From: an uncultured Gammaproteobacteria bacterium
Lineage (GTDB): Bacteria; Patescibacteriota; Microgenomatia; Levybacterales; UBA12049
Direction: 5' to 3'
DNA: 64,000 nucleotides
Assembly: GCA_964474445.1 (NCBI GenBank)
Contig: CAYYSJ010000005.1
Coordinates: 17,835-81,834, forward strand
The first letter of the stretch is position 1. Each line of letters starts with the position of its first letter. The notes below the pieces were generated by a model that saw nothing but the letters and a program-made list of their open reading frames with translations, ran no database searches and was not told the DNA's origin. This document shows, in pieces, positions 16,316-40,312 of this stretch. A program made the position numbers and the translations under genes.

Positions 16316-18262
16316 ATGCCCGATCAAATTGTCCAATCACCAGCGGGAGTAGTACCTGTTGGTGATGTTTCTGCTACGCAAGTTCCCATTGATGGGAGTG
16401 TTCCAGGAGTTCTTCCAAGTGATCCCTCCCTTCCAGTTGTCCAAGATGCAACAGTCTCTCTTGATGCTGTTACTCCTCCAGCCCCTTCTGTAAGTACTAC
16501 GGCATCTACAGAGCCACCAGCTCTTGATTCTGTTCGCGAGTTCTATTCAGCATCTCCAGGATCACAATCTATTTTAGACATTTTGCTTGAAGAAAAATTA
16601 CTGACCCCCGCTCAGGCGGATGAAGTCAGAGTGGAAAGTGCAACACAAAATAAATCTATTGAGTCTGTCCTAGTTGATAAGCAAATTGTCACAAGTGAAA
16701 AAATTGCTGAGGCAAAAGCAAAGATGCTTGGTGTTCCGTATCTGTCACTTGCCACAGCCTCATTCTCACCTGAAGCACTGAACTTTATTCCTCGTGCTGT
16801 TGTTGAACGGTTCCAGTTAATTCCCTTCATGTATGACGATACAACGAAGACGTTATCCGTTGCAATGGCAAATCCTGTGGATCTAGAAGCACAGCAATTT
16901 GTCCGTCAGAAAACAGGCCTTACGATCAAAACCTATGCTGCATCTCCTGAAGAAGTAAAAAATGCAATTGATGTGCAATATCGTCAGGAGTTAGTTGGAG
17001 AAGTTGGGAAAGCAGTAAAAGAAACAGAAGAATTAAAGCAAGAAAATCAAGCAAAAACAATAAATGCTGACCAAATTGGACAAATTATCAAAGAAGCTCC
17101 GATTGCAAAAATTGTTGCGACAATTCTTGAGTATGCTGTTACCTCTCGAGCTTCTGATGTACATATTGAGCCGATGGAAGATAGAGTTCGTGTTCGCTAT
17201 CGTATCGATGGTATTTTATATGACAGACTTTCATTGCCAAAGACAGTACAAGAAGCAGTTATTTCTCGTATTAAAGTATTATCAGAAATGAAAATTGATG
17301 AACACCGAACTCCTCAAGATGGTCGTTTTAATTTTAAATCTGGCAATGAAGAAGTCGACCTTCGTATTTCTGTGTTACCAACAGTGAATGGTGAAAAAAT
17401 CGTTATGCGTTTGCTCAAAAAATCGGGAGGTATTCCAACATTGCCTGAATTGGGACTCGCTGGTATCTCTCTCAAAGAACTTGAGACAGCAATCTTACGA
17501 CCTCACGGTATTATTTTGGTTACTGGTCCTACGGGCTCTGGAAAAACAACAACGCTGTATGCTGTGCTATCAAAGCTTAATACCACACGGGTGAATATCG
17601 TGTCCTTGGAAGATCCTGTCGAATACCAAATTGCTGGAGTAAATCAGGTACAAATAAACCCGGCAGTCGGACTTACTTTTGCTTCAGGTCTGAGATCTTT
17701 TTTACGACAAGATCCAAATATCATTCTTGTCGGAGAAATCCGAGATGGTGAAACAGCTGATCTTGCAATTCAAGCAGCCTTGACGGGCCATTTAGTGTTC
17801 TCAACCCTCCATACCTCAGATGCCGCTGGAGCTCTTCCTCGTCTGTTGGATTTAGGAGCAGAAACATTCCTGCTTGCCTCAACCATTACTGCTGTGATGG
17901 GACAAAGAATTACCAGAAAAATTTGTGACCATTGTAAAGCACCGTACACTCCTGCACCACAACTTGTCGAAGAGATCAGAACAATTTTGGGTCCTCTGAT
18001 GCCTCCAGGTGAAGTGAAATTGTATCGAGGAAAAGGATGCAGTGAATGCGGGGATTCGGGGTATATAGGAAGAATTGGTATTTTTGAAGTGTTGACCGTT
18101 ACAGATAGTGTAGCGCATTTAGTGTTGCAGCGAGCAGATGCTGAAACAATAGAAAAGCAAGCTGTTGCAGAAGGAATGATCACCATGAAGCAAGATGGAT
18201 ATCTAAAAGCACTTGCAGGAGTGACAAGCATTGAAGAAGTATTGCGAGTTGCTCAGGAATAA
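16316..18262 (+). CDS. pilB: Type IV pilus assembly ATPase PilB (GspE family)
   Basis: N-terminal GSPII_E_N domain. Walker A VTGPTGSGKTT. C-terminal tetracysteine CDHC...CSEC. Confidence 0.9.
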   Translation: MPDQIVQSPAGVVPVGDVSATQVPIDGSVPGVLPSDPSLPVVQDATVSLDAVTPPAPSVSTTASTEPPALDSVREFYSASPGSQSILDILLEEKLLTPAQADEVRVESATQNKSIESVLVDKQIVTSEKIAEAKAKMLGVPYLSLATASFSPEALNFIPRAVVERFQLIPFMYDDTTKTLSVAMANPVDLEAQQFVRQKTGLTIKTYAASPEEVKNAIDVQYRQELVGEVGKAVKETEELKQENQAKTINADQIGQIIKEAPIAKIVATILEYAVTSRASDVHIEPMEDRVRVRYRIDGILYDRLSLPKTVQEAVISRIKVLSEMKIDEHRTPQDGRFNFKSGNEEVDLRISVLPTVNGEKIVMRLLKKSGGIPTLPELGLAGISLKELETAILRPHGIILVTGPTGSGKTTTLYAVLSKLNTTRVNIVSLEDPVEYQIAGVNQVQINPAVGLTFASGLRSFLRQDPNIILVGEIRDGETADLAIQAALTGHLVFSTLHTSDAAGALPRLLDLGAETFLLASTITAVMGQRITRKICDHCKAPYTPAPQLVEEIRTILGPLMPPGEVKLYRGKGCSECGDSGYIGRIGIFEVLTVTDSVAHLVLQRADAETIEKQAVAEGMITMKQDGYLKALAGVTSIEEVLRVAQE

Positions 18263-18316
18263 CAATTACTAGTAACTCCCGTAGAAAAACTTTACAATAA
18301 AATAAAGGGACAATAT

Positions 18317-19384
18317 ATGGATTTACAACAATTACTCGATTTAGTAGTGAAAAATAATGCATCTGACTTGCATTTGATGCCAGGTCTTCCCCCTGCAATA
18401 CGAATTGATGGAATGTTGCAATACGTCTCTTCACTCCCTTCTATGAGCAGTGAAAGTGTCCAGAGTATGATATTTACCCTTCTAAATCCTGAGCAAAAAG
18501 ACTTATTAACAGCAAACAAAGAGTTAGACTTTTCTATGCCCTATGGGGGAGGAATTTATGGACAATTAGGAAGGTTTCGTGTTAATGCATATTTTCAAAG
18601 AGGACAATTATGTGCAGCGTTTCGATTCTTGCCAAAAAGCATTAAAACAATAGAAGAGTTACGCCTTCCTCAAATTTGTCATACGTTTGCTAATCTTCGT
18701 CAAGGATTTGTTCTTGTTACCGGGCCAACAGGTCAAGGGAAATCAACAACCCTTGCATCAATGATTAATGAGATTAATATGACCAGATCTTCTCATATTT
18801 TAACGATTGAAGACCCAATTGAATATGTTTATCCAAATGGAAAAAGTATTATTTCCCAACGAGAGATGAAAACTGATACTCATTCATGGACCATGGCACT
18901 TCGTTCTGCTCTTCGTGAAGATCCTGACGTTGTGCTCATTGGAGAAATGAGAGACCCTGATACAATGCAGGCAGCAATGACCATTGCTGAGACAGGCCAC
19001 TTAGTGTTTTCAACACTTCACACAAATTCTGCTGCTCAAAGTATTGATCGTATTATTGATTCCTTTCCTGAACATCAGCAGGGACAAATTCGCACACAGC
19101 TTTCCTTTACCTTGAAAGGTATTCTTTCACAACGACTGATTCCGCAAATTAGTGGCGGGAGAATCCCAGCGGTTGAAGTATTAGTTGGAACGCCAGCTGT
19201 TGCAAGTAATATTCGGGATGGGAAAACCCATTTGATTGATTCAATCATTCAGACATCTCAAGATGTTGGTATGGTGACACTTGATTATTCGTTATCCCAA
19301 CTGGTACTTTCAGGTGCAATCAGTCTTGATACTGCAAAATCATATAGCCTGCATCCTGACGAGTTATTGAGGATGGTTGGGTAA
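18317..19384 (+). CDS. pilT: Twitching-motility/retraction ATPase PilT
   Basis: Walker A VTGPTGQGKSTT, PilT-type AIRExxDVVLIGEMRD motif. 355 aa. Confidence 0.9.
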   Translation: MDLQQLLDLVVKNNASDLHLMPGLPPAIRIDGMLQYVSSLPSMSSESVQSMIFTLLNPEQKDLLTANKELDFSMPYGGGIYGQLGRFRVNAYFQRGQLCAAFRFLPKSIKTIEELRLPQICHTFANLRQGFVLVTGPTGQGKSTTLASMINEINMTRSSHILTIEDPIEYVYPNGKSIISQREMKTDTHSWTMALRSALREDPDVVLIGEMRDPDTMQAAMTIAETGHLVFSTLHTNSAAQSIDRIIDSFPEHQQGQIRTQLSFTLKGILSQRLIPQISGGRIPAVEVLVGTPAVASNIRDGKTHLIDSIIQTSQDVGMVTLDYSLSQLVLSGAISLDTAKSYSLHPDELLRMVG

Positions 19385-19471
19385 AAGAAACATGAACCGT
19401 CAAGCATCAGCCGTTCAAGGATTTTTAGAAAAAACTATCCTCATACTCATCGGTTAAGGGTCTATGCTGTT

Positions 19472-20674
19472 ATGAAAGTACAATATCGTGCAACCACAAA
19501 AGACGGGAAAGTTGTTCAAGGAGTTTTAGAAGCAAAAGATACACAAGAAGCTGCATTTTTTCTACGTGGAAAAGAGATGCTTCCGCTGTCTCTTCGTCAA
19601 GTAGAACAAAAAGAAATACCTTTTGCTTCCCTTTTTAAAAAATCGAGTACATCTGATTTAGTCTTATTCACGAGACAATTATCATCGATCCTTTCATCAG
19701 GTCTGACACTGATGCAAGCATTAGCAATCCTCAAGGAACAAATACAAAATCCAGTGATGAGAGAAGTTGTTACTGGTATTATTGCTGATGTTCAGGAAGG
19801 AAAAACATTTGGAACTGCAATTGAAAAGTATCCAAACATTTTCAGCAAAATTTATATCGCACTTATTAAAGCTGCAGAATCTTCAGGTTTTTTGGATAAG
19901 GTATTACTCCGACTGGCTGATAATCTAGAAAAAGAACAAAAGTTAAAATCAACGATTAAATCAGCCCTCATGTATCCAATTATCGTTGTTATTTTGATGG
20001 TTGTTGTGATGTTTGTCATGATGATTTTTGTTATCCCACAACTGACTGTGTTGTATCAAAATTTAAATATTCCACTTCCCTTTACAACCCAAGTTCTTGT
20101 TACCGTTTCAAATCTTACTATTACCTTCTGGCCTATTGTTTTGGGAAGCATTGTTGCTATTGGTATTGCCTATCAACGATGGGTCAAAACTGACTCAGGA
20201 GAGTTGTTAACCGATGGATTGAAATTAAAAGTACCAGTGTTTGGCAAGCTTATTCGTCAAACAATTCTTGCTGAATTTTCTCGTACCTTTGGTCTTTTAG
20301 TTGGAGCAGGAACACTGGTTGTCCAGTCATTGAATGAGGCTGCTGATACATCCGGAAATAGGATTTATGAGAATGCGATCCAAGAAATTGCAAAACGTGT
20401 TGAGAAGGGAATTTCTATTGGAGATGCAATGGCAGCTTTTGATATCTTCCCTCCTATTCTCGTCCAAATGGTAAAAATTGGTGAACAGACTGGAAAACTA
20501 GATGAATCACTGTTAAAAGTCAGTGAATATTTTGAACGAGAAGTAGATGGGACAGTCAAGACATTAACAACAGCAATGGAACCATTTATCATGATTGTCT
20601 TAGGTGTTGGTGTTTCCTTCCTGATTATTTCTATTATTACGCCAATTTACAACCTTACCTCAAGTATTCAATAG
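19472..20674 (+). CDS. pilC: Type IV pilus inner-membrane platform protein PilC (GspF family)
   Basis: Two GspF repeats and three TM segments. 400 aa. Confidence 0.9.
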   Translation: MKVQYRATTKDGKVVQGVLEAKDTQEAAFFLRGKEMLPLSLRQVEQKEIPFASLFKKSSTSDLVLFTRQLSSILSSGLTLMQALAILKEQIQNPVMREVVTGIIADVQEGKTFGTAIEKYPNIFSKIYIALIKAAESSGFLDKVLLRLADNLEKEQKLKSTIKSALMYPIIVVILMVVVMFVMMIFVIPQLTVLYQNLNIPLPFTTQVLVTVSNLTITFWPIVLGSIVAIGIAYQRWVKTDSGELLTDGLKLKVPVFGKLIRQTILAEFSRTFGLLVGAGTLVVQSLNEAADTSGNRIYENAIQEIAKRVEKGISIGDAMAAFDIFPPILVQMVKIGEQTGKLDESLLKVSEYFEREVDGTVKTLTTAMEPFIMIVLGVGVSFLIISIITPIYNLTSSIQ

Positions 20675-20700
20675 TTAACTTCGTGGTCTGGGGCTAGGTT

Positions 20701-21171
20701 TTAAAAAGGTCTTCCCATCTCTTCAAGTTCTTTTATTCCTTCTATGGAGTGGATAATAGAATCGACTGCTACGTTTTCCCTATCTGCAATAATAAGTCCC
20801 TGAATAATATTTCGGGCTCTAATGGCATCCCTTTTTTTAAGATGACGAATACTCATTACCTGATTTTGGAATACTCGTCCAGGAAGAATATGCAGTGTTG
20901 CAAAAAAAAGACTGTGGTCGACTGAAAGATCGGAAATATGTTTAATAGGAACAGAATGAATTTGTGCTGATCCAAAAAAATCACGAATGATAACACTCAC
21001 TTTTTCACTATCAATAACCAGATCATCTGGGAAAAAATCAAAGGGAAAAACAGTTTTTGTTCGAAAGAGGACACACGAACATTTGCCCCTCAAGTGATCT
21101 ATCGTTTGTTTTTCTGAAGGGGTAAGAGGAAGTGACGTATCTCTGCGAAAAATGGTACCAGGTTGAAGCAT
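20701..21171 (-). CDS. Hypothetical protein (possible PH/PilZ-like beta-sandwich), start refined to 21171
   Basis: ORF convergent with pilC. aagga precedes the internal ATG. No confident motif. Confidence 0.3.
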   Translation of the reverse strand: MLQPGTIFRRDTSLPLTPSEKQTIDHLRGKCSCVLFRTKTVFPFDFFPDDLVIDSEKVSVIIRDFFGSAQIHSVPIKHISDLSVDHSLFFATLHILPGRVFQNQVMSIRHLKKRDAIRARNIIQGLIIADRENVAVDSIIHSIEGIKELEEMGRPF

Positions 21172-21296
21172 ACATATCCTTTCATACCTAATGATGTGAC
21201 ACGATTTTATAAAAACTATGTGGTAAATAGTGATGAAACATGTAGGAATAAGGGAGTTTACAAATTGGTAATTGCTTTCTATCATAAGAAGACATT

Positions 21297-22466
21297 ATGA
21301 GGAAGTTGTTCTTTATTGATTATGCATCACTGTTTCTGTTTTCTTTTGTTGTCACAATTACTGTGACGACATTTATCTATCCTCCCAGTAACCGTATGGA
21401 TTTTAGTATTTATCTTCTTGTTACAAAAGTTGCGCTTTTGCATAAATCGCTCTATCCATTATTTATTGACGGAGTTCTCTTTCCATATACTCACCCAACA
21501 AGTCTTACTCCATTTTTCTTTCCCTTTTTATTTCTCTCCCCTTCTCTTGCCGCAAGTGTATGGAATGCTCTTTCATTAGTGTGTTTGATTAGTGGCATCT
21601 TTTTTGTGATACGAAGTGTTCACCCGGTAAAACTTTCAACAATGCTTCTTATCCTTTCAAGTGTTCTTTTATTAGAACCTGTAAGAGAAAGTTTTCTTTT
21701 TGGTCAGAATAATTGTGTTGTATTATTGTTTGTGTTACTAGCATTTCTTTGTTCTAGGAAAAACAAATTTTCCTATCAAATCATAAGTGGTATATGTATT
21801 GGTATTGCCGCTTCTTTGAAATTATTTCCACTTTTTCTTCTTGTCTATTTTTTACTAAAAAAACAGTGGGTTAGTCTTATGGTGAGTCTTTTGATTTTTG
21901 TTTTTTTCCTACTCCTTGGAACATTTGGTCATGTTTCCTATATAGGGGAATACATGCAGTATGCGTTTGGTGTGATGGATTCTTCCCGTGTCCTCCCCGG
22001 TGATTACTCTTTATCATCATTACTATTTCTCTTTTTCCCTATGCCTTCTCTTCTGCGAATGATTTGTGTTAGTCTTTTCTCTATGCTGTTTATTGCAGTG
22101 TCTTTTTTTATTTGGAAAAAAGGAAGAAATGATGATCTGTCTGACTTTCTTTTTTTTAGTAGTATACTTGCTGTTACAATTCTTATGATCACACCACTAG
22201 CATGGGTGCATCATCTTGTCTTTCTTATTCCGTTTTGTCTGGGTCTTTTTCTCAAAGCACTCGAAACATCAGGCATACAAAGTAAGGTTATTTTTCTTGT
22301 CGCGTTTCTTCTCATATTTGTCAATTGGGAAGACTTTGTTATTTTTTTGCAAACACATGGAGCTGGATATATTCCGTTATTGTATTTTCATGCGTTATTT
22401 GGTTTGGGAGTGGTAATAATTGGAGAGCTTCTTTTACTTTCGTTTCAAAAGTTTGAAAAGAAGTAG
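21297..22466 (+). CDS. Polytopic membrane protein, probable GT-C glycosyltransferase (DUF2029/GT87-like)
   Basis: About 11 TM helices. Motifs GQNNCVVLL, GIAASLKLFPLFLL and PLAWVHHLVF resemble the DUF2029 (GT87) family. Confidence 0.4.
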   Translation: MRKLFFIDYASLFLFSFVVTITVTTFIYPPSNRMDFSIYLLVTKVALLHKSLYPLFIDGVLFPYTHPTSLTPFFFPFLFLSPSLAASVWNALSLVCLISGIFFVIRSVHPVKLSTMLLILSSVLLLEPVRESFLFGQNNCVVLLFVLLAFLCSRKNKFSYQIISGICIGIAASLKLFPLFLLVYFLLKKQWVSLMVSLLIFVFFLLLGTFGHVSYIGEYMQYAFGVMDSSRVLPGDYSLSSLLFLFFPMPSLLRMICVSLFSMLFIAVSFFIWKKGRNDDLSDFLFFSSILAVTILMITPLAWVHHLVFLIPFCLGLFLKALETSGIQSKVIFLVAFLLIFVNWEDFVIFLQTHGAGYIPLLYFHALFGLGVVIIGELLLLSFQKFEKK

Positions 22467-24689
22467 ACTTACGCTAAGTGGTGGTAAGGCAAGGAGTATC
22501 CACGCTAAATTAATCGTTATTGTTTTTTTCACTGGTGCAACATGGATTGCAGCAACAGTCGTTTTTTGTGCAGTATCAAAGGTTGTTCGCACGGTCCCTG
22601 AACCTCCTTGAGCAGTTGGTCCATTGGTGTTTTCAGTGATTGGATTTTGGTTGTTTGATGCGGTTGGTGTTGTTGCAAGTTGCGCTGGCTGCTGTGGTGC
22701 AGAACTTGGTGATGGAGATTGGGTTGGTGTTGCAATACTTTGTGTAGTTGTTTGTTGCGCATTTGTCTGTGTATTGGTATTGTTTTGTGGTGTTTGCGTA
22801 TGTTGTTTTGTCTGGCCCGGTGTCACAAAGTCGCCTACCCATTTCCCAAATACATTAACAACAGTAACAAACAGCTTGCCCTTTCCAACAATATTGTCAT
22901 TAACAAAGTTAACAATGTTCGCAAGAATTTTTGCATCCCCTGTTTGAACAGTGACATTTCCTCCGGTATTTTCATTTGCAATATTGCCACCAGTATTGGC
23001 AGAAAGAGTAAGTTTGTTGCCAACTGTACCTGTATTTTTTTGTTGTGTTGTTGTTTGGGAATTTTGCGTTGTTTGTGCGTTATTAGTACTCCCTGCTCCA
23101 TTTCCATTATTACTTGCACTTACATTTCCATTTGCATCACTCGTAATCGTAAGACCATTTGATGCAACAGTAGATCCACTGGGTGCCCCGATCAGCTGAC
23201 CAATCCACTGCCCTGCTTTGTTAACAAGGACAAGCCATAAGTTACCGTCTGAAATATTGGAGTTTGCGATATTCAACACATGTGAATCCGCGGACGCTTG
23301 TCCACTATTTACCGTTGTTGTACCACCCGTATTTCGTGTGGCATCATTTCCTCCTGTTGTACTAGTCGTTTGCAGATTGTTGTCGATGACAGCGTCATTT
23401 GTTTGAGAAAGAAGATTATGTGACATCTGATTTGCAACCGAAGTATTGCTACTGCCTGCTCCGTTTCCTGCATTACTTAAGGATGTATTTGTGTTGTTGC
23501 AGCCATTTGTGCAGGGATTAAACGAATCCAACACGCTTTGTGGCAGGATGATATCTCCCTGTAAGTTTCCATAAATATTCACAACACCGTAGACAACATT
23601 TCCTGAAGCGATATTATTGTTCAAAAATGTTAATGAGTTTGCGGATACATTGGCATTGCCTGTTTGAATCCCTGTATTTCCTCCCGTATTCTTGTTTGAG
23701 AGATTGTCTCCAGAATTTGCCGTGAGAACTAAATTATTTCCAACACTTCCATCATTGGTTTGTGTGAGGGAGGATTGAGACGTTTTGTTTGCTTGAGAAG
23801 TGTTAGTACTCCCTGCCCCATTGCCGATATTTTTCACTATTTCTCCTGGAACTGTTGTTGAACATCCACTAATACAATGTGCTCCAAAATCCAAGACAAG
23901 ATCACCAGTATGGTTGTCTGCAATATTGAATTCTGCAACTGCTACACCATCAACGTTCGTGTTTTGCGCGGTAATGATTGTTCCGGAAACATTTGCATCG
24001 CCTGTTTTGGTTGCTGTATCTCCAACATTTTCAGAAGCATTGTTTTTGCCTGTGACAGATGCTTGTGAAAGTGTTTGGGCAGAACTTGCAGTATTTGTTT
24101 GGACAGCACTCGTTGTATTGTTTGTTGATGTCGATGTTGCATTGGTAGATTGTGCTCCGTTTCCTGCATTTGTTGCATTTGATGATGATGGTGTTGGTGA
24201 GGCATCATGTGTTGTTCCAATTCCTGATGGGGACGTCGCTCCATTATTGTTTCCAGTTGTTGTACTGGTATTTTGTGGATTTGCGTTACCTGTTGTCACG
24301 GCGTTTGTCCCTGCTGGTGCAGAAGTTGGTGTGGGAGATGTAGAAACTGTTGGATCCCAATGAGGATCATTTTGCTGTGGATTCCCTCCAGAATTTACAC
24401 TTGGACTTTGTGTAGGGGTAGAAGTAGTTGGGGTATGTTCGTGAGGAGGATTGTTTGTAGTATTGTTCGTGTTACTTGTAGAGGTTTGTTGTTGCGGTGA
24501 TGGTGTTTGAGAAGTGGAAGGTACAGATGGAGCTGCTGGGGCGCTTGGTGCTGTTGGAGCACTGGGTGGTGTTTGTATCGTTGCTGCATGGATAGGAAGC
24601 GTGTTAAAAAGAATCATGCAGAGAATCAGTATGCCTGTGAAGAATTTTTTTAGACTGATTTCTCTATATTGTTTTATTTTATGTTTCAT
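22434..24689 (-). CDS. Secreted/surface Asn-Thr-Gly-rich tandem-repeat protein (751 aa) with a C-terminal hydrophobic anchor
   Basis: N-terminal signal peptide. Pro/Ser/Thr-rich linker. Three approximately 100-aa repeats (GNGAGS.N...NTGGN..V.TG.A...). C-terminus LAWILLALPPLSVSLLLFKLLKRK (TM plus basic tail). Confidence 0.6.
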   Translation of the reverse strand: MKHKIKQYREISLKKFFTGILILCMILFNTLPIHAATIQTPPSAPTAPSAPAAPSVPSTSQTPSPQQQTSTSNTNNTTNNPPHEHTPTTSTPTQSPSVNSGGNPQQNDPHWDPTVSTSPTPTSAPAGTNAVTTGNANPQNTSTTTGNNNGATSPSGIGTTHDASPTPSSSNATNAGNGAQSTNATSTSTNNTTSAVQTNTASSAQTLSQASVTGKNNASENVGDTATKTGDANVSGTIITAQNTNVDGVAVAEFNIADNHTGDLVLDFGAHCISGCSTTVPGEIVKNIGNGAGSTNTSQANKTSQSSLTQTNDGSVGNNLVLTANSGDNLSNKNTGGNTGIQTGNANVSANSLTFLNNNIASGNVVYGVVNIYGNLQGDIILPQSVLDSFNPCTNGCNNTNTSLSNAGNGAGSSNTSVANQMSHNLLSQTNDAVIDNNLQTTSTTGGNDATRNTGGTTTVNSGQASADSHVLNIANSNISDGNLWLVLVNKAGQWIGQLIGAPSGSTVASNGLTITSDANGNVSASNNGNGAGSTNNAQTTQNSQTTTQQKNTGTVGNKLTLSANTGGNIANENTGGNVTVQTGDAKILANIVNFVNDNIVGKGKLFVTVVNVFGKWVGDFVTPGQTKQHTQTPQNNTNTQTNAQQTTTQSIATPTQSPSPSSAPQQPAQLATTPTASNNQNPITENTNGPTAQGGSGTVRTTFDTAQKTTVAAIHVAPVKKTITINLAWILLALPPLSVSLLLFKLLKRK

Positions 24690-24785
24690 AGTTCTTTATT
24701 ATTGTTTCTTCTTTTTTTGTTGCTTTCGTCTTCCTGTAGGGTTTGGAGAGAAGTGCTTCTCCAAGATCCCTACAGAAAGAACTAG

Positions 24786-26024: not shown

Positions 26025-26189
26025 ATATTCTGTTCACCCCCTTTCCTTTCAAAGATCCTGTTTTTCTCAGGCGCACTTCAGCGCAAACTGTAGAGAGTAG
26101 CTCTTAAGGAGAAGTTAATAAGCAGTAAGACTTGGGTAATAACAAAGATGAAGTGACAAAAACAATTATGAATGGTCAAAGAACAGATG

Positions 26190-26795: not shown

Positions 26796-26798
26796 AGA

Positions 26799-27224: not shown

Positions 27225-27301
27225 ACAAAGCAGTCAGGCAACATCATAAAAATACCTATTATGAAACTTTGTTGAATTGTGTAAGACTTACGTAACAAGG
27301 A

Positions 27302-28891: not shown

Positions 28892-28938
28892 TACCTATTG
28901 ACAAGGTTAAAATTAGTGTGCTTAACTTAAACTGTAGG

Positions 28939-32710: not shown

Positions 32711-33498
32711 GCATGCTTGCTGTTATGATATATTTTTTTGTATTTATTGTTGGACTGTGTGTTGGTTCTTTTTTGAATGTTGTTATTGATAGAATCCCTC
32801 ACCATAGATCTATTGTGAAAGGAAGATCAGAGTGTGATTTTTGTCACCATACTCTTGCCTGGTATGATCTTATTCCTGTTTTCTCATTTGTCTTTCTCAG
32901 AGGTGCATGCAGATATTGCAAACACACGTTGTCACTTCAGTACCCGATTGTTGAAATACTTACCGGAGTATTATTTCTTGTGTCATACGTCTTACTACTA
33001 GGAAGTCCAGGTGTTTTTGCATTGGGAAAGTCGTTTCTTCTTTTGAGTCTTTTTGCAACATTTTTTGCTCTTTCTGTAATGGATATAAAATATGGAATAT
33101 TATCTGACACGTTAATCCTCTTTTCGGTAGGACTAACAGTTGGACTGTTGTTATTTTCTCCTGCGCTTTTTTTTGCACATCTTTTGGTTGGATTTGTGTG
33201 TTTGGGCGTATTATTGCTTCTTTTTCTTGTGACGAAAGGTCGAGGAATTGGGCTTGGTGATGTCAAACTAAGTTTTGTGATGGGACTATTGCTTGGATTC
33301 CCCTCAATTGTCGTTGCGTTCTATATAGCTTTCTTGACAGGTGCTTGTATTGCAATCATACTAATAGTAGCAAAGAAAAAAAAGCTGGTTGGAGGGACAA
33401 TAGCATTTGGTCCTTTCTTGCTTCTTGGGACATATATCAGCTGGTATTTTGGTAGCAGCGTATGGATGTTTTTTCTGCACATACTCGGCATTCTTTAG
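32698..33498 (+). CDS. pilD: Prepilin peptidase PilD (A24 family)
   Basis: N-terminal CxxC...CxxC zinc-binding region (CDFC...CRYC). Eight TM helices. Asp-containing peptidase motifs. Confidence 0.85.
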   Translation: MGCVSMLAVMIYFFVFIVGLCVGSFLNVVIDRIPHHRSIVKGRSECDFCHHTLAWYDLIPVFSFVFLRGACRYCKHTLSLQYPIVEILTGVLFLVSYVLLLGSPGVFALGKSFLLLSLFATFFALSVMDIKYGILSDTLILFSVGLTVGLLLFSPALFFAHLLVGFVCLGVLLLLFLVTKGRGIGLGDVKLSFVMGLLLGFPSIVVAFYIAFLTGACIAIILIVAKKKKLVGGTIAFGPFLLLGTYISWYFGSSVWMFFLHILGIL

Positions 33499-34232
33499 AA
33501 AAAGGGTTTACGCTTATTGAACTATTAGTTGTTGTTGTCATGTTTGCAACACTACTTCTTGGTCTTATTGTTACCTTTAATCCACTCGGTCAGATCAATA
33601 AGGCAAAAAACCTTGATCGTGAACATAACCTTGACCAAATAAAATCAGCCTTGGATAGTTATTATAACGATAATGGGTGTTACCCAACTGCTCTCACGTT
33701 TGGGTCCATATGGCAAAATAACAATAGTGTCTATATGCCAAAAGTCCCCCAAGATCCTGATTTTGTCAGCGGCTCAACAAGCAATCTTCCCTACGTCTAT
33801 CAAACAGATGGGTCAAGTTGTCCTCAATGGAATGTGTTGTATGCGGGACTTCGGGTACCTATTAATATTTCACTTCCCTGTCCTCTTGCCAAAAGAACAG
33901 CATGTGTTCCCCAGGGATTTAACTCGTTCTATAATTTCTGTCTCTCCTCAGGAACGGTAAATTGTGCGTATATTGCCTCCACAAGTCTTCAGACAGGTCC
34001 TACTCCTACCCAACCTGCAACTCCTACACCAACTGTGGGTCCAACCCCAACTCCCTATATTGTTAATTGTCAAACAAACTATTATGCATGTACTGGAGAT
34101 AACAGGTGTAATGTCTTGAGTGTTGATCCTGTGTCGCATCAACCAACACAGTGTTTTGGCTATGGAGGGACGTACCAATGTTATTGTGATAATCTTTGTC
34201 GAGTAAATGGCGTGCTACAATGTGCACACTAA
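33462..34232 (+). CDS. Type IV pilin-like protein with a Pro/Thr linker and Cys-rich C-terminal domain
   Basis: EKG/FTLIELLVVVVMF class III signal. TGPTPTQPATPTPTVGPTPTP linker. C-terminal module with nine Cys. Confidence 0.7.
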   Translation: MDVFSAHTRHSLEKGFTLIELLVVVVMFATLLLGLIVTFNPLGQINKAKNLDREHNLDQIKSALDSYYNDNGCYPTALTFGSIWQNNNSVYMPKVPQDPDFVSGSTSNLPYVYQTDGSSCPQWNVLYAGLRVPINISLPCPLAKRTACVPQGFNSFYNFCLSSGTVNCAYIASTSLQTGPTPTQPATPTPTVGPTPTPYIVNCQTNYYACTGDNRCNVLSVDPVSHQPTQCFGYGGTYQCYCDNLCRVNGVLQCAH

Positions 34233-34241: not shown

Positions 34242-34841
34242 ATGAAAACAAAAAAACGAGTAGGACACTCCTTTATCACACGTAATCATCATGCTGGTTT
34301 TACCATGGTAGAACTGTTAATTAGTATTGGTGTGTTAGCAATACTTGCTGTGTTTGCATTAGCTGCAGTAAACCCGATTGATCAATTTAAAAAAGCAAGA
34401 GACTCGCAGAGAAAATCTGATTTAGCACAACTGCAAAAAGTTTTGGAACAATACTATCAAGACTGGGGACACTATCCTCCCAATAGCAATGCGTATCAAC
34501 TTGAGGATGAGAGAGCAAATCCCTATACTATCATTCCGTGGGGAGGGTCTGGAGGATGGACTCCCTATATTGATCTTGTTCCAAAAGATCCTGATCCTGC
34601 TCGTACGTATATCTATTACTCAACAAATAGCGGCCAAAAATATTATGTATATACCTCTCTGGAAAGAGGACCGCTTGATCCGACAACATGTATGGCAACA
34701 AATGCGCAGTGTAAGGCAAATCCTACAAGCACATTCTGTAATTGTACAGGTGCAACGAGTTTAACAACGCCGACATTTTGTGGGGCAACAACACTCCTTC
34801 CTTGTAATTATGGTGCGACAAGTTCAAACACGACACCCTAA
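34242..34841 (+). CDS. Type IV pilin (GspG/PilA-like)
   Basis: HAG/FTMVELLISIGVLAILA prepilin motif. Confidence 0.75.
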   Translation: MKTKKRVGHSFITRNHHAGFTMVELLISIGVLAILAVFALAAVNPIDQFKKARDSQRKSDLAQLQKVLEQYYQDWGHYPPNSNAYQLEDERANPYTIIPWGGSGGWTPYIDLVPKDPDPARTYIYYSTNSGQKYYVYTSLERGPLDPTTCMATNAQCKANPTSTFCNCTGATSLTTPTFCGATTLLPCNYGATSSNTTP

Positions 34842-34859
34842 GACGTTGACGATTTCTTT

Positions 34860-35387
34860 GTGACACTTTACTATAACAATATGAAGATAAAAAGAAAAAA
34901 CAGTATATACACTCGCTCACTCACGACGATACAACGAGGGTTTACTCTTGTTGAGCTGTTGATTGTTATTGCAATCATTGGCATTCTCTCAACACTGCTA
35001 ATGGCCAATTTTATCGGTATCAGACAACGAGCACGAGATGCGCAACGAAAATCTGATGTGCGACAAATCCAGTCAGCACTTGAGTTGTATAGAGCAGATA
35101 ATGGAAGTTACCCTGCACCGGCAGGGTCGAATGGGTTAACAACAAATTGCCCAAATCCAGCCGCCTTTACTGCAAACGGGACAACGTATATGGCTCAAAT
35201 CCCTTGTGATCCACTGGGAGCCTCTTTCTATCACTCAGGAAACTATTTTTATAAACTAACAACAGGTGGATATGAACTGGGTACATGTTTGGAAAATATA
35301 GCTGACAATGATTATTATTCTGGCAGTTTTGATGGAGCTGATAATTCTTGTACCACAGCACACTATTTTGTAAAAACAAACCCCTAA
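34860..35387 (+). CDS. Type IV pilin (GspG/PilE-like)
   Basis: QRG/FTLVELLIVIAIIGILS prepilin motif. Conserved NGSYP segment. Confidence 0.75.
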   Translation: MTLYYNNMKIKRKNSIYTRSLTTIQRGFTLVELLIVIAIIGILSTLLMANFIGIRQRARDAQRKSDVRQIQSALELYRADNGSYPAPAGSNGLTTNCPNPAAFTANGTTYMAQIPCDPLGASFYHSGNYFYKLTTGGYELGTCLENIADNDYYSGSFDGADNSCTTAHYFVKTNP

Positions 35388-35426
35388 TACATTGACGCAG
35401 AAGATCCAACCATTTACCATAGAATT

Positions 35427-35996
35427 ATGTTAGACAAAAAAGGAAGGACGTCTCAGTCGGGGTTCACTCTTATTGAGCTTATTATTGTCTTCACGCTTTT
35501 TACGCTTCTTTCAGGAGTTGGTGTTGCTTCCTTTGTTACCTATAGCAGAAGCCAGGCAGTTGATAATAGTATGAAAGAGCTAAAAACCACACTATTTACT
35601 GCCAGGTCGCGAGCACTTTCCCAGTTAAAAGATGCGAGTTGTGGAAGTTCAACAAATCTGCAACTTCTTGGATATGAGGTTGTTTTATGTACAGTTCCAG
35701 GTCATTCCCACCCTGCAAATGTTGCGTGTAATGCTGCCTCAAACTCCTATGAGTTACAAATTATTTGTGGAAAGCCAGATGGTTCAGGACAAATTGCAAC
35801 TACGGTGCTTGGAAAAAGTTTTATTGATCGAAATATCAGTTTTGATACAACCTCAACTGCAACGTATTTCTTTTTCACATCAATAACAGCATCTGTTATA
35901 TCAGATAATGCAAGTGGTGGAAACCCAACAGCTGTTATCAATGGCTATTCTCTGAAAAAATCGGTAAATGTATCCCAGACTGGAGTTATTCAATGA
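35427..35996 (+). CDS. Pseudopilin (GspH/FimT-like)
   Basis: QSG/FTLIELIIVFTLF class III signal. Confidence 0.7.
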   Translation: MLDKKGRTSQSGFTLIELIIVFTLFTLLSGVGVASFVTYSRSQAVDNSMKELKTTLFTARSRALSQLKDASCGSSTNLQLLGYEVVLCTVPGHSHPANVACNAASNSYELQIICGKPDGSGQIATTVLGKSFIDRNISFDTTSTATYFFFTSITASVISDNASGGNPTAVINGYSLKKSVNVSQTGVIQ

Positions 35997-36526
35997 TCAG
36001 AAATGAACGTGGCCAGACTCTTATTGAAGTATTAGTAGGACTTGCCGCTGCTGTGATTGTTATTGCAGCAATTACTGTTGCTGCTGTTTCCTCTTTAAAT
36101 AATGCTGAATATAGTCGTGACCAGAGTTTAGCAACTCAGTATACGCAAGAAGGCATTGAGGTTGTCAGAAATATGCGAGATCAGAATATCTCTTCAATCA
36201 GTTCTTCCTCTCTTCCTGATGGCACCTATTGTATGGCAAAAGGGTGTCAGTCAATAACGCCAAACGCTGGAAATTGTGGACCACGAAGTGGAAACCGCTG
36301 TAGTCAAAATGTCAATAATTTTGTTCGAGAAATCACCATCCTTCACAATGATAGTACGTGTAATGGCAATGGACCAACCCCGAACCCTACGCCAACGCCG
36401 ACGTTAAAAATAACAGCGGTAACGTACTGGGGTGATACGAAATGTACAAGTTCGACAAATCCATTTTGTCATAGCGTTATCTCAACATCATGTCTTTCTG
36501 ATTTTACGATTGTCCCAACGCCATAA
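35993..36526 (+). CDS. Pseudopilin (PilV/GspI-like)
   Basis: RG/QTLIEVLVGLAAAVIVIAAI N-terminus with Glu at position +5. Confidence 0.6.
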   Translation: MIRNERGQTLIEVLVGLAAAVIVIAAITVAAVSSLNNAEYSRDQSLATQYTQEGIEVVRNMRDQNISSISSSSLPDGTYCMAKGCQSITPNAGNCGPRSGNRCSQNVNNFVREITILHNDSTCNGNGPTPNPTPTPTLKITAVTYWGDTKCTSSTNPFCHSVISTSCLSDFTIVPTP

Positions 36527-36528
36527 CT

Positions 36529-37086
36529 ATGAAAATTTCTCGACATGTTTTTCGTTTACCAAGGCAAGAGGCTGGTTTTACTCTTGTTGAGATGCTTGCT
36601 GTCATGGTTGTTTTTATTATTGTTGGGAGCATTATGCTCTCTATCCTCGTGACAACATTCAGAACATCTCAAAAAACAGATACCCTGACGCAAGTCAGAG
36701 AAAATGGCAACTATGTTCTTACCCAAATGGCAAAAACAATTCGCAGTGCGACAGGTCTTGTTGCTCCTTTCCCCTGTGTGACCCCAGTCATAACAAGTAC
36801 CCTAACCGTTCTGACGCCTGATCATAATCAGATTATCTATGATTGTACGATCCCACCCAGTCCAACTCCTGCCACGATTGCATCAAACAGTGCATCTGTC
36901 CTGGATACCTCAGCCGTTACATTAACCGCCTGTAGCTTTACGTGTACACAAAATAGTAAAAGCGAATTGCCTATCATACAAATCAATTTTTCGCTCAAAC
37001 AGCAAAGTAGTAGTACCTTTGTTGAAAAAACCGTTTCCACTGTTTCTTTCCAAACATCCGTTGTTATGAGAAACATCATTCGCTAG
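36529..37086 (+). CDS. Pseudopilin (PilW/GspJ-like)
   Basis: EAG/FTLVEMLAVMVVFIIVGS class III signal. Confidence 0.7.
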   Translation: MKISRHVFRLPRQEAGFTLVEMLAVMVVFIIVGSIMLSILVTTFRTSQKTDTLTQVRENGNYVLTQMAKTIRSATGLVAPFPCVTPVITSTLTVLTPDHNQIIYDCTIPPSPTPATIASNSASVLDTSAVTLTACSFTCTQNSKSELPIIQINFSLKQQSSSTFVEKTVSTVSFQTSVVMRNIIR

Positions 37087-37133
37087 CTACCTTTGCAATT
37101 GACAGGCTCTTTCACTCTTGTTACTCTAGAAGT

Positions 37134-38033
37134 ATGGTATTTCTTACCGAGTTTTTCCGTAGTCGTGAACAAGAAAAAGGACAAGCACTCTTAATTGTTG
37201 TCCTCGTGATTGTGGTGACCTTAACCGTTGGTCTCTCATTGGCCTCGCGCAGTATTGTCCAGCTTCGCAATACAACGGATGAGGCAAATTCCCAAGCAGC
37301 ATTTTCTGCAGCCGAAGCAGGGGTTGAGCAAGCAACCAAATTAGGAAACGTCAATGGCAGTGGCGTTATTAGTGGCATCAATTTGAATGATAAAAATAAT
37401 TCTCAAATTAGTACTGTTGATGTCACTATTATGAAAGCAGATAGTGTGTTAATCAACAATGGCACTCCTCTATTTCAAGATAATGGAGCTGACTTGTGGT
37501 TAACTCCTTACGATACAAACCAGGCAAACCTCTTTGATAGCACGAAAGCGTTCAACGGGACATTAACCATCTATTGGGGAACAAATACCAATCCTTGTGT
37601 AGATCCTGCAGTTGAAATCCTTATTATCTCAGGAACAAGAACAAGTCCGACGCTGAGTAAATATGCCTATGACCAATGTGGGTCAAATAGTACCCAACCT
37701 CTCAAAAGAGCAAATGGATTTCCTGATGCCCCTCAAAAAGTAACCTCCCAGACACAATCTGCCTTTACCATTAGTGGAACAAACGGTTCTACAGTGTTTA
37801 ACTATAAAGCACAAATTGCTGTTGGTAGTGGTCTTATTGCTCGCATTATTCCACTCTACAATTCAGGCCAAGTTGGAGCATCTGGTATTGGTTTACCAGA
37901 TCAGGGGAAAATTATCACATCAACGGGAACAGCAGGCATTTCAAACCAACAAGTTGTGCGAAAAGTAGGCTTTTTCCAAGGACATGAGCAATTGCCCATT
38001 CAATTTTACTACTCACTTTTTACATCACGATAA
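37134..38033 (+). CDS. PilX/GspK-like minor pilin
   Basis: KGQALLIVVLVIVVTLTVGLSLASRS...ANSQAAFSAAEAGVE is a typical PilX N-terminal helix. Confidence 0.55.
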   Translation: MVFLTEFFRSREQEKGQALLIVVLVIVVTLTVGLSLASRSIVQLRNTTDEANSQAAFSAAEAGVEQATKLGNVNGSGVISGINLNDKNNSQISTVDVTIMKADSVLINNGTPLFQDNGADLWLTPYDTNQANLFDSTKAFNGTLTIYWGTNTNPCVDPAVEILIISGTRTSPTLSKYAYDQCGSNSTQPLKRANGFPDAPQKVTSQTQSAFTISGTNGSTVFNYKAQIAVGSGLIARIIPLYNSGQVGASGIGLPDQGKIITSTGTAGISNQQVVRKVGFFQGHEQLPIQFYYSLFTSR

Positions 38034-39055
38034 TGAAACAAAAAGCATTTGGACTCGATATTGGGACAAACAGTATAAAAGTAGTATGGCTTTCTCGTGA
38101 ATCAAAAGGATTTTTTTTGCAAGCTGCCCAAGTAATCCCTACTCCACTTCGTGGCATGCTATCTGAATCACCACTGGATCAGGAAGAAATGGCAAAAGCA
38201 ATTCGTGCGATTGTCACTGAATCAAGAATTTCAACGAGATACGTCAATATTGCGCTTCCTGAGAATCAAGTATATACCCGTGTCATTGATATGCCTCCGC
38301 TGTCTGATAAAGAACTTTCCAGTGCAATTTATTGGGAAGCAGAACAATATATCCCTGTTCCGCTGCCAACAATTACCCTTGATTATAAAGTGTTACGGCG
38401 TCCTCAACCAGGAAGCATGGAAAAGATGCAAGTTTTGTTAGTAGGAGCACCAACTGCAATTATTGATAAATACGAATCTGTTTTAAATCTTGCAGGATTA
38501 TCAATCAATGCTGTTGAAACAGAACTGCTCTCTTTAGTTAGAGCACTTGTGGTTGATGAGAAATTTCCCGCATCTCTCATTGTTGCTATTGGAGCGGTAA
38601 GTACGTCTCTTGCCATCATTCATGACAACATGCTTGTATTTACCTATTCATTGCCAACAGGAGGTGTTGCCCTGAGCCGTGCGATTGCTGCAGATTTTGG
38701 CTTTGCGATACAACAAGCAGAAGAATATAAAAAAGTGTACGGGTTAGCAGATCAGAATATTGGAGGGAAAATTGGCAAGGTTACTGAACCAATTCTTTCA
38801 TCTATTTTAACAGAAATGAAAAAGGCATTAGCATTCTATGGGAATAAATACCCTACTGATCCTATCAAGCAACTTATTATCTCAGGAGGGACAGCACGCT
38901 TGCCTGGTCTTGCCACTTATTTTACTGCCAATACTGGTATTGAAACAGCAATAGCAAATCCGTGGAAAATTTTAGTAGAGCAAGAAGTGCCAAAAGATAT
39001 TATTGAAAATGCTTCTGAGTATAGCATTGCAGTTGGCCTTGCAATGAGAGATTAA
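38033..39055 (+). CDS. pilM: Type IV pilus assembly protein PilM (actin-like ATPase fold)
   Basis: FGLDIGTNSIKVV N-terminal phosphate-1 motif. 340 aa. Confidence 0.85.
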   Translation: MKQKAFGLDIGTNSIKVVWLSRESKGFFLQAAQVIPTPLRGMLSESPLDQEEMAKAIRAIVTESRISTRYVNIALPENQVYTRVIDMPPLSDKELSSAIYWEAEQYIPVPLPTITLDYKVLRRPQPGSMEKMQVLLVGAPTAIIDKYESVLNLAGLSINAVETELLSLVRALVVDEKFPASLIVAIGAVSTSLAIIHDNMLVFTYSLPTGGVALSRAIAADFGFAIQQAEEYKKVYGLADQNIGGKIGKVTEPILSSILTEMKKALAFYGNKYPTDPIKQLIISGGTARLPGLATYFTANTGIETAIANPWKILVEQEVPKDIIENASEYSIAVGLAMRD

Positions 39056-39059
39056 TGGT

Positions 39060-39596
39060 ATGAGTAATGATATTAACCTGCTCTCACATCAGAGTAAAAC
39101 ACGTTTTTCACAGGAGCAAATCCTTGCTTACAGTAAGGTAGCAGCAATCATATGCAGTATCCTTACTGTTTCACTGGCACTGATGCTGTTTCTTCTCAAT
39201 CGTGACCCTACTCTTTCGCAACTGCAAGGACAGCAACAAACGGTTTTGGCAGAGTTAACGATTCTTCACAGTAAGACGGCAAAAGATTTAATTATTCTGG
39301 ATAGAGTAAAACGTATTGTACAAATTAATCAACAAAGAAGTTCTCTTGGACAAAAAGTAACAGATATCCAAAAACAACTTCCCAGTGGTATATCGATCTC
39401 ATCATTCACTCTTGATAGTAAACACGTTAATCTCACTATTACTTCATCATCGCTTGTTCCCATGGGGACGTTTATTAACAATCTGACACAGGCAATTAAC
39501 AATAAAACGTTGTTGAAACAACTAACAATTCAAGGAATTATCTCTGATGAAAAAACAGGCACGTATTTACTGAGTATTACCGGTGATTTATTATGA
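39060..39596 (+). CDS. pilN: PilN-like bitopic inner-membrane protein
   Basis: Single TM after a short cytoplasmic N-terminus, then a coiled coil. Position directly after pilM. Confidence 0.55.
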   Translation: MSNDINLLSHQSKTRFSQEQILAYSKVAAIICSILTVSLALMLFLLNRDPTLSQLQGQQQTVLAELTILHSKTAKDLIILDRVKRIVQINQQRSSLGQKVTDIQKQLPSGISISSFTLDSKHVNLTITSSSLVPMGTFINNLTQAINNKTLLKQLTIQGIISDEKTGTYLLSITGDLL

Positions 39597-40312
39597 GCGC
39601 ACTTAATCCAAAAGTTTCGTTAGACCAACTTGTTCTGAAAGCTCTGTACTATCGGTACAAGAACTTTCTTGTTCCTATGGGGACAATTGCAGTATGTGTT
39701 CTGTTGTTTCTGTTTATCATTATCCCCCAAATACAAGCATGGTTTGCCATGAAGGATGAAATATCAGTTGATACGCAAAAACTTCAAACGTTAAAACAAA
39801 ACCTGCAAACAATCTCCCGTCTTGATGATGGACAATTAGATACGTATTTAACAACAGCATCCAATGCCCTTCCAACAGACAAAGACTTTGGGAGCATCTT
39901 ACAAACATTGGCAGCTGCGGCAGCAACTGCAGGGACAAGTTTAGGAGACTATAACTTCCAAATAGGAGATTTAGTCAGTCCAGACACAAAAACTACTGGG
40001 GGTCAGATTCCTCTTGAATTATCGATTAATCTTAAGGGAGATGTCACAACAGGGAAACAATTTATCGATGCGTTGAAAGCACAGCTGCCTATTTCTGATG
40101 TGACATTAATGAATGTCAATGCAAACGGAACAATCAATATCACTCTTGTCTTCTATTATGCTCCACTGCCAAAGATTACGTTTGATGATTCTGTACCATT
40201 ACAAACGCTTTCTGCAAAGGATCAAGCTATGTTACAACTTCTTGCAACACCTCAGGTAACACCATTGATTACGCAGCCTCCTGCTACTACATCAGCAAAA
40301 CTTACTCAGTAG
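39593..40312 (+). CDS. pilO: PilO-like bitopic membrane protein
   Basis: Single TM, then coiled coil and a periplasmic domain. Position after pilM and pilN. Confidence 0.5.
   Translation: MSALNPKVSLDQLVLKALYYRYKNFLVPMGTIAVCVLLFLFIIIPQIQAWFAMKDEISVDTQKLQTLKQNLQTISRLDDGQLDTYLTTASNALPTDKDFGSILQTLAAAAATAGTSLGDYNFQIGDLVSPDTKTTGGQIPLELSINLKGDVTTGKQFIDALKAQLPISDVTLMNVNANGTINITLVFYYAPLPKITFDDSVPLQTLSAKDQAMLQLLATPQVTPLITQPPATTSAKLTQ

Follow-up and report, generated by a model that had tools for sequence, protein, structure and literature searches.

The human enzyme TMEM260, loss of which leads to a congenital heart and kidney syndrome, combines a GT-C membrane part, a Rossmann-like domain and a TPR domain, in this order, and transfers mannose from a polyprenol-phosphate-mannose donor to Ser/Thr of an extended peptide. 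The paper reporting its discovery mentions only "distant homologs in bacteria" (PMC10214176). A bacterial enzyme of similar build, TfpW (AAM52060.1) of Pseudomonas aeruginosa, has 646 amino acids (aa), 11 transmembrane (TM) helices and a periplasmic TPR domain; its gene lies directly after pilA, and it is required for the D-arabinofuranose (D-Araf) found on Ser/Thr of the group IV pilin, with a lipid-linked monosaccharide as the donor (bioRxiv 10.1101/2020.04.19.049825). Judged by analogy, TfpW is the nearest functional precedent for the system described here, and a GT-C pilin glycosyltransferase is not unprecedented. We analyzed a stretch of 64,000 nucleotides (nt), hereafter the window (CAYYSJ010000005.1, positions 17,835-81,834, forward strand; GC content ~38%), which carries at 16316-40312 a type IV pilus locus with a TMEM260-like gene directly behind that of the major pilin. 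The function of this TMEM260-like enzyme and its accessory enzymes is probably pilin glycosylation, and the locus is best read as a pilin-dedicated extracytoplasmic O-mannosylation system with a variable slot for glycan extension, its acceptor, sugar and donor being deduced.

The core enzyme, a DUF2723 protein, matched PF11028 with 71.1 bits (cut-off 24.2) and carries the HPPGYPLF motif and C-terminal TPR domain that a preliminary description of this DNA, made from the letters alone, had noted. The same description had let the gene begin at 29460, directly after the major pilin; the adjacency stood, but the actual start lies at 29490, which gives a protein of 672 aa identical to the database protein P0001. 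A profile of 44 family members (A1) matched human TMEM260 (9rql_A; the solved structures are PDB 9rql, 9rqm and 9rqn) with an E-value of 3.4e-68, profile positions 12-454 aligning with TMEM260 residues 31-479, which comprise the entire GT-C part and the beginning of the luminal domain. As in human TMEM260, the predicted GT-C membrane part is followed by an alpha/beta domain (~390-510) and then by helices of the TPR type (512-672). The TPR_17, TPR_11 and TPR_1 matches were all sub-threshold, and profile positions 513-652 matched TPR proteins of the PDB, with a best E-value of 4e-31. AlphaFold models of this enzyme and of the PIG-V-like enzyme encoded next to it were built on family alignments, and their folds were searched against the PDB by Foldseek. 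The TMEM260-like model had a predicted local distance difference test score (pLDDT) of 88.7, and its top fold matches were all GT-C enzymes; the significant matches of the two models were ArnT, PglB, STT3, ALG9/12, Pmt4, AftA, EmbB, PimE and the glycosylphosphatidylinositol (GPI) mannosyltransferase GPI-MT-I.

The likeness extends to the active site. In TMEM260, the substitutions D52A, H67A, R264A, Y267A and D441A abolish the activity and R355A lowers it; D52, H67, Y267 and R355 contact the mannose of the dolichol-phosphate-mannose donor, R264 contacts its phosphate, and the catalytic base, D441, lies in the Rossmann-like luminal domain (bioRxiv 10.64898/2026.03.17.711096). In the HMMER alignment these six residues correspond to D31, H46, R239, Y242, R329 and D415 of the window enzyme, and an alignment of the locus-derived sequences showed their equivalents to be kept in 53-56 of the 56 pilus-linked homologues. 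On this sequence evidence, the DUF2723 protein is a true TMEM260 homologue with intact active-site residues, a link far stronger than the letters alone could show, and we propose it as the initiating pilin O-mannosyltransferase. By inference, it would also share the polyprenol-phosphate-mannose donor and the Ser/Thr acceptor on an extended peptide; since the architecture with which TMEM260 grips its acceptor peptide, through the TPR and Rossmann-like domains, is common to both, a protein acceptor is the natural expectation. The two enzymes differ in other respects. The window enzyme comes from a bacterium, its gene is part of a pilus operon, and its presumed client is a pilin, not the IPT domain, on whose folding residues the acceptor signature proposed for TMEM260, P-x5-P-x3-G-P-x2-[GA]-G-G-x2-[TS], is built. 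The distal TPR region of the human protein cannot be aligned by sequence with that of the window enzyme, and the pilus-linked clade has a Cys pair of its own in the C-terminal domain, Cys604 and Cys635 (present in 51/56 and 49/56 of the pilus-linked sequences and absent in other phyla), which would fit a disulphide in an extracytoplasmic domain specialised for the pilus context. Finally, the human O-mannose is not extended, whereas the two further GT-C genes of the window suggest extension.

The pairing with the pilin gene extends far beyond the window. We surveyed 80 loci of TMEM260-like homologues, one genome per species (GTDB representatives), annotated by phmmer with the window proteins and by a class-III-signal pattern for pilins; the identities of 28-49% indicate that these loci do not come from near-identical genomes. 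A core pilus gene lies within 6 kb in 50 of the 58 Patescibacteria-type loci, and in 40 of them a pilin gene on the same strand ends at most 150 bp upstream of the enzyme gene, while both counts are 0 for the 22 loci from other phyla (Chthoniobacterales/Verrucomicrobia, Acidobacteria, Gemmatimonadetes and others; 26-31% identity). The preliminary description would have been refuted had the genes lain away from pilus genes in related genomes; there they lie with them. All nearest homologues belong to the Patescibacteria (candidate phyla radiation), the named ones being Levybacteria, Gottesmanbacteria, Curtissbacteria, Woesebacteria and Roizmanbacteria of the Microgenomates group. The loci of relatives are labelled L001 and so on. 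Six of their contexts, with TMEM260-like proteins 42-70% identical to that of the window, were compared, and all read holB, pilB, pilT, pilC, then the pilin and TMEM260-like genes, the pilin stop lying less than 12 bp from the enzyme start; in five, pilD, the minor pilins, pilM/N/O and finally trmD follow downstream, and the contig of the sixth (L004) ends at the TMEM260-like gene. In the window, 8 nt separate the pilin stop codon from the ATG of the enzyme gene, and no terminator was found between the two. A neighbour-joining tree gathered all 56 pilus-linked sequences in one clade, down to ~28% identity, and the order pilC, pilin, TMEM260-like, pilD is kept in 40-50 species-level genomes of several Microgenomates candidate phyla, persisting despite inversions and insertions elsewhere in the locus. 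The gene identities, the GT-C folds, the conservation of the catalytic residues and the order of the pilin, TMEM260-like and pilD genes are directly supported.

Two side observations concern the surveyed records. In L037, an IS200-like transposase gene (Y1_Tnp, 5095-5814) lies within the pilus locus beside the TMEM260-like gene, and the gene orientation is rearranged there. The record titles "uncultured Gammaproteobacteria" of L013, L015-L018, L020-L025 and ~20 more loci look wrong, because the holB-pilB...trmD synteny and the enzyme tree place these loci in the Patescibacteria clade.

We propose that this Patescibacterium of the Microgenomates group has in the locus its one type IV pilus operon, into which pilin glycosylation is built. 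The prepilin would be inserted in the membrane, and the TMEM260-like enzyme, acting on the outer face, would hold an extended stretch of the pilin through its Rossmann-like and TPR domains and move a hexose, most likely mannose, from a polyprenyl-phosphate-sugar to a pilin Ser/Thr. The GT87/PimE-like and PIG-V/PMT_2-like enzymes, which are without a large soluble domain, would then extend the sugar residue by residue from the same type of lipid-linked donor, after which PilD would cleave the leader and the PilB/C/M/N/O machinery would polymerise the glycosylated pilin. Since characterised relatives of all three enzymes (TMEM260, PimE and the GPI mannosyltransferases) use polyprenol-phosphate-mannose, an oligomannose-type O-glycan is the simplest prediction. 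What we infer in this scheme is that the pilin is the acceptor, that the sugar is mannose carried on a lipid, in which order the steps follow and that the two small enzymes act in elongation. A wider claim, to which we give slightly less than even credence, is that the Microgenomates TMEM260 homologues are dedicated pilin O-mannosyltransferases that perform an integral, near-obligatory step of pilus biogenesis between the pilin and PilD, with a hyper-variable glycan slot giving each lineage its own glycan for host recognition or phage evasion.

Compared with TfpW, the window enzyme has the same gene place after the major pilin (as in 40 of the 58 related loci) and the same combination of GT-C and TPR parts at a similar length (~650 versus 672 aa). 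However, a regular-expression search showed that the TfpW motifs DDX (loop 1) and YX6PFX7P (loop 4) are absent from the 672-aa protein, which has GGDVGD (loop 1) and HPPGYPLF where TfpW has its own motifs. TfpW also resembles the Emb arabinosyltransferases and depends on D-Araf genes of the DprE1/DprE2 type. Our window-wide domain scans covered the open reading frames (ORFs) of at least 250 aa other than those antisense within the listed locus genes, and neither DprE1/DprE2 nor the phosphoribosyltransferase of the D-Araf pathway was found among the scanned ORFs. Because the motifs are absent and the arabinose genes are not in the window, we did not file the window gene as a member of the TfpW family, a comparison made by published motifs, position and architecture only.

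Enzymes of the PglL/TfpO (PilO) type, from Neisseria and P. aeruginosa group I, likewise attach glycans to pilins at the outer side of the inner membrane, and tfpO too lies directly after pilA. They carry a Wzy_C domain and transfer a preassembled, undecaprenyl-pyrophosphate-linked oligosaccharide en bloc, whereas the window system appears to work stepwise from monosaccharide donors. No Wzy_C/O-antigen-ligase domain was matched among the scanned window ORFs, in agreement with the earlier view that GT-C enzymes take the place of a PglL/TfpO-type transferase here. The actinobacterial and fungal PMT/GT39 systems resemble our proposal in that a GT-C enzyme starts O-mannosylation outside the membrane from polyprenol-phosphate-mannose; there, GT39 initiates and many secreted proteins are clients, while in the window the initiating enzyme would be of the TMEM260 type, encoded in one operon and presumably serving one client. 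GT87 enzymes, of which the same organisms have PimE-type members, use the same lipid-linked mannose donor, but the solved PimE acts on phosphatidylinositol mannosides, not on proteins. The three-component systems GtrA/GtrB/Gtr* and CsbB-YfhO combine a lipid-phosphate monosaccharide donor with an extracytoplasmic GT-C enzyme (PMC11127046, PMC5836110), the same logic as that suggested for the window, and YfhO-like genes occupy the accessory slot of 25 of the 58 related loci. Their known acceptors, however, are polysaccharides or teichoic acids, not proteins, and neither a GT2 synthase nor a flippase turned up beside the GT-C genes of the window. The preliminary suggestion of a dedicated pilin O-glycosylation pathway built from GT-C enzymes gains support from the family and synteny outcomes, with the qualifications that only the TMEM260-like gene is conserved and that TfpW is a GT-C precedent.

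The genes of the locus are as follows, with Pfam or NCBIfam matches in brackets (Pfam scans covered each sizeable ORF in 14-43 kb of the window).

16316-18262, plus strand: pilB, extension ATPase (T2SSE 2.5e-127, MshEN 5e-14; position kept in all related loci)
18317-19384, plus strand: pilT, retraction ATPase (T2SSE 1.6e-43; syntenic in relatives)
19472-20674, plus strand: pilC, platform protein (T2SSF 3.5e-62, two copies)
20701-21285, minus strand: small ORF after pilC, without Pfam or NCBIfam match
21297-22466, plus strand: GT87/DUF2029 GT-C glycosyltransferase, PimE-like, accessory (PF09594 1e-27)
22434-27224, minus strand: four-gene optional module encoding proteins of 751, 412, 201 and 141 aa, without Pfam/NCBIfam matches
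27302-28891, minus strand: PAS sensor histidine kinase (HATPase_c, HisKA, PAS_9, DUF4118; gene-caller product 499 aa)
28939-29481, plus strand: major pilin (N_methyl 5e-9; TIGR02532)
29490-31508, plus strand: TMEM260-like (DUF2723) GT-C enzyme (PF11028 1.3e-19, TPR)
31550-32710, plus strand: small PIG-V/PMT_2-type GT-C enzyme, accessory (PF04188 9e-6; PMT_2 1e-4)
32698-33498, plus strand: pilD, prepilin peptidase/N-methyltransferase (A24_N_bact 4.5e-34; Peptidase_A24 8e-11)
33462-34232, 34242-34841, 34860-35387, 35427-35996, 35993-36526 and 36529-37086, plus strand: six minor pilins/pseudopilins (N_methyl in 6/6; T2SSG in 3/6)
37134-38033, plus strand: PilX_N-like large minor pilin (PilX_N E = 7e-4, under the gathering score; position kept in relatives)
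38033-39055, plus strand: pilM (PilM_2 1.8e-54)
39060-39596, plus strand: pilN-like (PilN E = 0.008, sub-threshold; same position after pilM in relatives)
39593-40312, plus strand: pilO-like (T2SSM E = 0.003, sub-threshold; same position in relatives)

PilB, PilT, PilC, PilD, PilM and the pilins with class III signals were all found by Pfam in one cluster, and the core set listed in the preliminary description, including the six class III pilins besides the major one, was recovered; its pilN and pilO are called from sub-threshold matches and the conserved place after pilM only. The pilus genes are clustered as that description held, except that ~6.5 kb of its 24-kb locus (22434-28891) belong to a run of minus-strand genes that do not encode pilus machinery. 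Housekeeping genes border the locus on both sides, with holB upstream and trmD, rnc and nusB downstream. The locus showed no secretin, as expected for what we take to be a single-membrane cell. The ORF of the major pilin spans 28780-29481, and the actual start is the ATG at 28939; the leader MKKLSNLIRCFSIKPQAG is followed by a cleavage site between KPQAG and FTLIELL, and the mature protein begins FTLIELLVVIGILG. This pilin is 58-83% identical to the pilins that precede the TMEM260-like gene in relatives, and the histidine kinase gene is divergent from it. The Ser/Thr/Pro-rich and Cys-rich C-terminal regions of the pilins noted before have their counterpart in the minor pilins: Pro/Thr-rich (PT-rich) linkers in those at 33462-34232, 35993-36526 and 36529-37086, and Cys-rich C-termini, the minor pilin at 33462-34232 having 14 Cys. 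PT-rich linkers are typical acceptors in actinobacterial and fungal protein O-mannosylation. PT-rich minor pilins were rejected as a universal acceptor here, because they occur in only 10 of 43 related loci.

The two accessory GT-C enzymes were assigned with different firmness. The GT87/DUF2029-like protein, reported earlier at the same coordinates, scored 97.8 bits against PF09594 (cut-off 25) and matched the solved PimE (9dm5_A) with an E-value of 8.8e-11. It is not a PimE orthologue, since its score against NCBIfam PRK13375, 65 bits, is far under the equivalog cut-off of 413. The alignment with PimE starts at PimE residue 74, past the first extracytoplasmic loop, and the window protein has NRMDFSIY after its first TM helix. 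Eight homologues of at least 44% identity were found, the next standing at 29%; the gene lies just after pilC in the pilus locus in all five contexts compared and is confined to the nearest relatives. The PIG-V-like protein directly before pilD does carry the WDAQHF and FPPLYPL motifs described earlier, and its match to PF04188 is marginal (25.7 bits versus a cut-off of 22.4), that to PMT_2 sub-threshold (22.6 versus 26.1 bits). A profile of this family (A2) matched GPI mannosyltransferase 1 with E = 0.005, and the subfamily assignment is loose. Its AlphaFold model (pLDDT 94.2) gave significant Foldseek matches to GT-C enzymes, including GPI-MT-I, ALG12, ArnT and PimE, and its Asp58, invariant in 48 sequences, aligns with the Asp of FHDAAKY in GPI-MT-I. 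All three membrane proteins of the window thus fall into GT-C families by sequence, and the two that were modelled also by fold. The trio said to lie beside the major pilin and PilD is present in full but not contiguous, the GT87 gene being split off by the block at 22434-28891.

Across the relatives, this part of the locus is variable. Seven of the 58 Patescibacteria-type loci have a PIG-V-like gene in the interval from the TMEM260-like gene to pilD. Homologues of the PIG-V-like protein, down to ~40% identity, agree with TMEM260-like homologues in the length of their longest contig, which suggests that both lie on the same contigs. In 25 of the 58 loci, the same place is taken by a YfhO-family gene on the opposite strand, encoding 717-816 aa (for example, L040 7838-10084, minus strand; others include L035, L041, L042 and L045-L048), with a YfhO Pfam match that spans only the last ~80 residues of the model. 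L027 (8024-11554) and L052 (2617-5187) have cassettes of GT2, GT4 and S-adenosylmethionine-dependent methyltransferase genes beside the TMEM260-like gene in the pilus locus, and one cassette methyltransferase is rhamnosyl-O-methyltransferase-like, which suggests methylated or more complex glycans in these lineages. The GT2 genes of the two cassettes were considered as GtrB/DPM1-like donor synthases, and this was not supported: their best solved relatives are other GT2 glycosyltransferases (5tze) and chondroitin synthase, and they look like TarS or chondroitin-synthase types. Of the three GT-C genes, the TMEM260-like one alone belongs to the conserved operon; the other two, PIG-V-like and GT87, are accessories of particular lineages and occupy a variable slot. 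A fixed initiating enzyme with changeable glycan genes looks like a glycosylation island. We read the variation of the slot as diversification of the pilus glycan; its use in host recognition or phage evasion is speculative.

The minus-strand block at 22434-28891 encodes two repeat-rich secreted proteins, two small proteins and the histidine kinase, none of them pilus machinery. The proteins of 751 and 412 aa (22434-26024) are secreted and have Ser/Thr/Asn-rich repeats, the longer one with a signal peptide and a C-terminal membrane anchor. The four-gene block is not present in L001-L007. It was rejected as a one-off insertion, because homologous blocks of 39-74% identity lie in the same locus of L008 (1060-5155), L010 (261-4355), L091 (9121-11058) and L092 (5979-10627), directly upstream of the pilin in the first two and just after GT87 in the last two, whose contigs stop before any pilin. 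Its proteins could be alternative glycosylation targets or pilus-associated adhesins. The small ORF at 20701-21285 has counterparts of 46-62% identity in the same place after pilC in L001, L004, L006, L091 and L092, and one of 33% identity in L008, where pilC lies outside the fetched flank. It may encode a pilus-locus component not described before.

Several observations weigh against this proposal. Glycosylation of the pilin is predicted from the genes, and no Ser/Thr of the major pilin was found to be universally conserved across the pilus-linked lineages, the YYTTH of the window-group pilin reading YYAIK or FYAVQ in some of them. The window and the scanned stretches beyond it, ~2 kb past its right end and ~7 kb past its left end, yielded neither a polyprenyl-phosphate-mannose synthase (GT2) nor a GtrA-like flippase, and no named GtrB or DPM synthase is among the PDB matches of the L027 and L052 GT2 genes. 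Moreover, the metabolism of Patescibacteria is reduced, so that the supply of the donor sugar is questionable. Seven members of the pilus-linked clade (L019, L024, L025, L026, L029, L032 and L043) have no core pilus gene nearby; the contigs of L019 and L043 are too short to judge the linkage, and some of the others may be second copies, L024 sharing its metagenome-assembled genome with the pilus-linked L079. Part of this evidence favours the serious rival, a non-pilin surface acceptor, in which the GT-C enzymes are active on Ser/Thr/Asn-rich repeat proteins, an S-layer protein, or a wall or lipid polymer, and are co-regulated with the pilus through a shared attachment surface. Besides the missing universal Ser/Thr of the pilin, the repeat-rich secreted proteins of the window (22434-26024), which recur in L008, L010, L091 and L092, offer possible alternative acceptors. 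Teichoic acids, not proteins, are the known targets of YfhO, a proposed GT-C enzyme (PMC5836110). A PIG-V-like relative of 39% identity also lies beside a YfhO-like gene at 5629-9131 of L090, on an 853-kb contig with no pilus gene within 8 kb, so that this pair works in another context too, and the TMEM260-like homologues of other phyla are not pilus-linked. On the other side, the repeat block is missing in most pilus-linked loci (for example, L001-L007), whereas the pair of pilin and TMEM260-like genes is near-universal and tightly spaced; TMEM260, which grips an extended peptide, is an O-mannosyltransferase specific for proteins, and the catalytic base in its peptide-binding domain, D441, is conserved here; and the clade-specific C-terminal domain evolved along with the pilus linkage. 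We regard a non-pilin acceptor as unlikely on balance, though with a real share of the probability.

Much less probable is that the TMEM260-like protein mainly has a structural or chaperone function within the pilus machine of a cell with a single membrane, its TPR domain docking or piloting pilins and glycosyl transfer having been lost or become secondary. TPR proteins do serve as assembly factors in other type IV pilus systems, the gene stands after the pilin and before pilD among genes that otherwise all serve assembly, and no donor-synthesis gene was found nearby. Yet the six essential residues are kept in nearly all pilus-linked homologues at ~28-30% identity, a conservation not expected were catalysis dispensable, and accessory genes nearby, for glycosyltransferases and methyltransferases, speak for actual glycan chemistry. 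Least credible is a coincidental placement of general envelope GT-C genes inside the pilus cluster. Patescibacterial genomes are small and compact, unrelated genes are often packed together in them, and housekeeping genes indeed flank this locus; but chance adjacency would not outlast the divergence of the 40-50 species-level genomes that keep the gene order. Because the linkage survives divergence to ~28% identity as well as local inversions, chance placement is excluded, and this explanation is effectively refuted by the synteny survey. Pilin glycosylation by the TMEM260-like enzyme and its accessories remains the reading that we favour.

A few features lie apart from the pilus genes. The Rfam scan of the whole 64 kb gave no family at the gathering score, tRNAs and riboswitches included. 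One ORF of 348 aa (47778-48824) fuses a prephenate dehydrogenase N-domain to a prephenate dehydratase domain, and the argininosuccinate synthase at 875-2491 carries a C-terminal MGS-like domain, an unusual fusion. The pheT beta-subunit fragment at 62555-63895, which lies outside the domain scans, takes its identity from precomputed annotation. Among the relatives, the Levybacteria gyrB of L002 (1-2036) contains an intein (PF14890 Intein_splicing match inside GyrB).

Patescibacteria are ultra-small, for the most part uncultured episymbionts, and type IV pili are regarded as their chief means of finding hosts and holding on to them. An experimental study of Patescibacterial pili predicts O-glycosylation and names no enzyme for it (PMC11623550), and our literature search found no paper that links DUF2723/TMEM260 homologues to pili or describes a version of this association in the candidate phyla radiation. 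The finding is best described as a new form of a known principle: pilin-adjacent GT-C glycosylation is known, and new are its base in a TMEM260-type O-mannosyltransferase, the extra GT-C enzymes for extension and the conservation across a large uncultured lineage. The locus provides the first functional context for bacterial TMEM260 homologues and, together with ~50 related loci, names a concrete candidate enzyme system for the glycosylation of Patescibacterial pili. If the proposal is true, it would assign the first function to bacterial DUF2723 proteins and offer a tractable prokaryotic model of a disease-linked human enzyme, and the predicted pilin glycosylation can be tested without culturing the organism. 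For the Patescibacteria themselves, it predicts that the pilus surface is coated with sugar and that this coat would differ between lineages.

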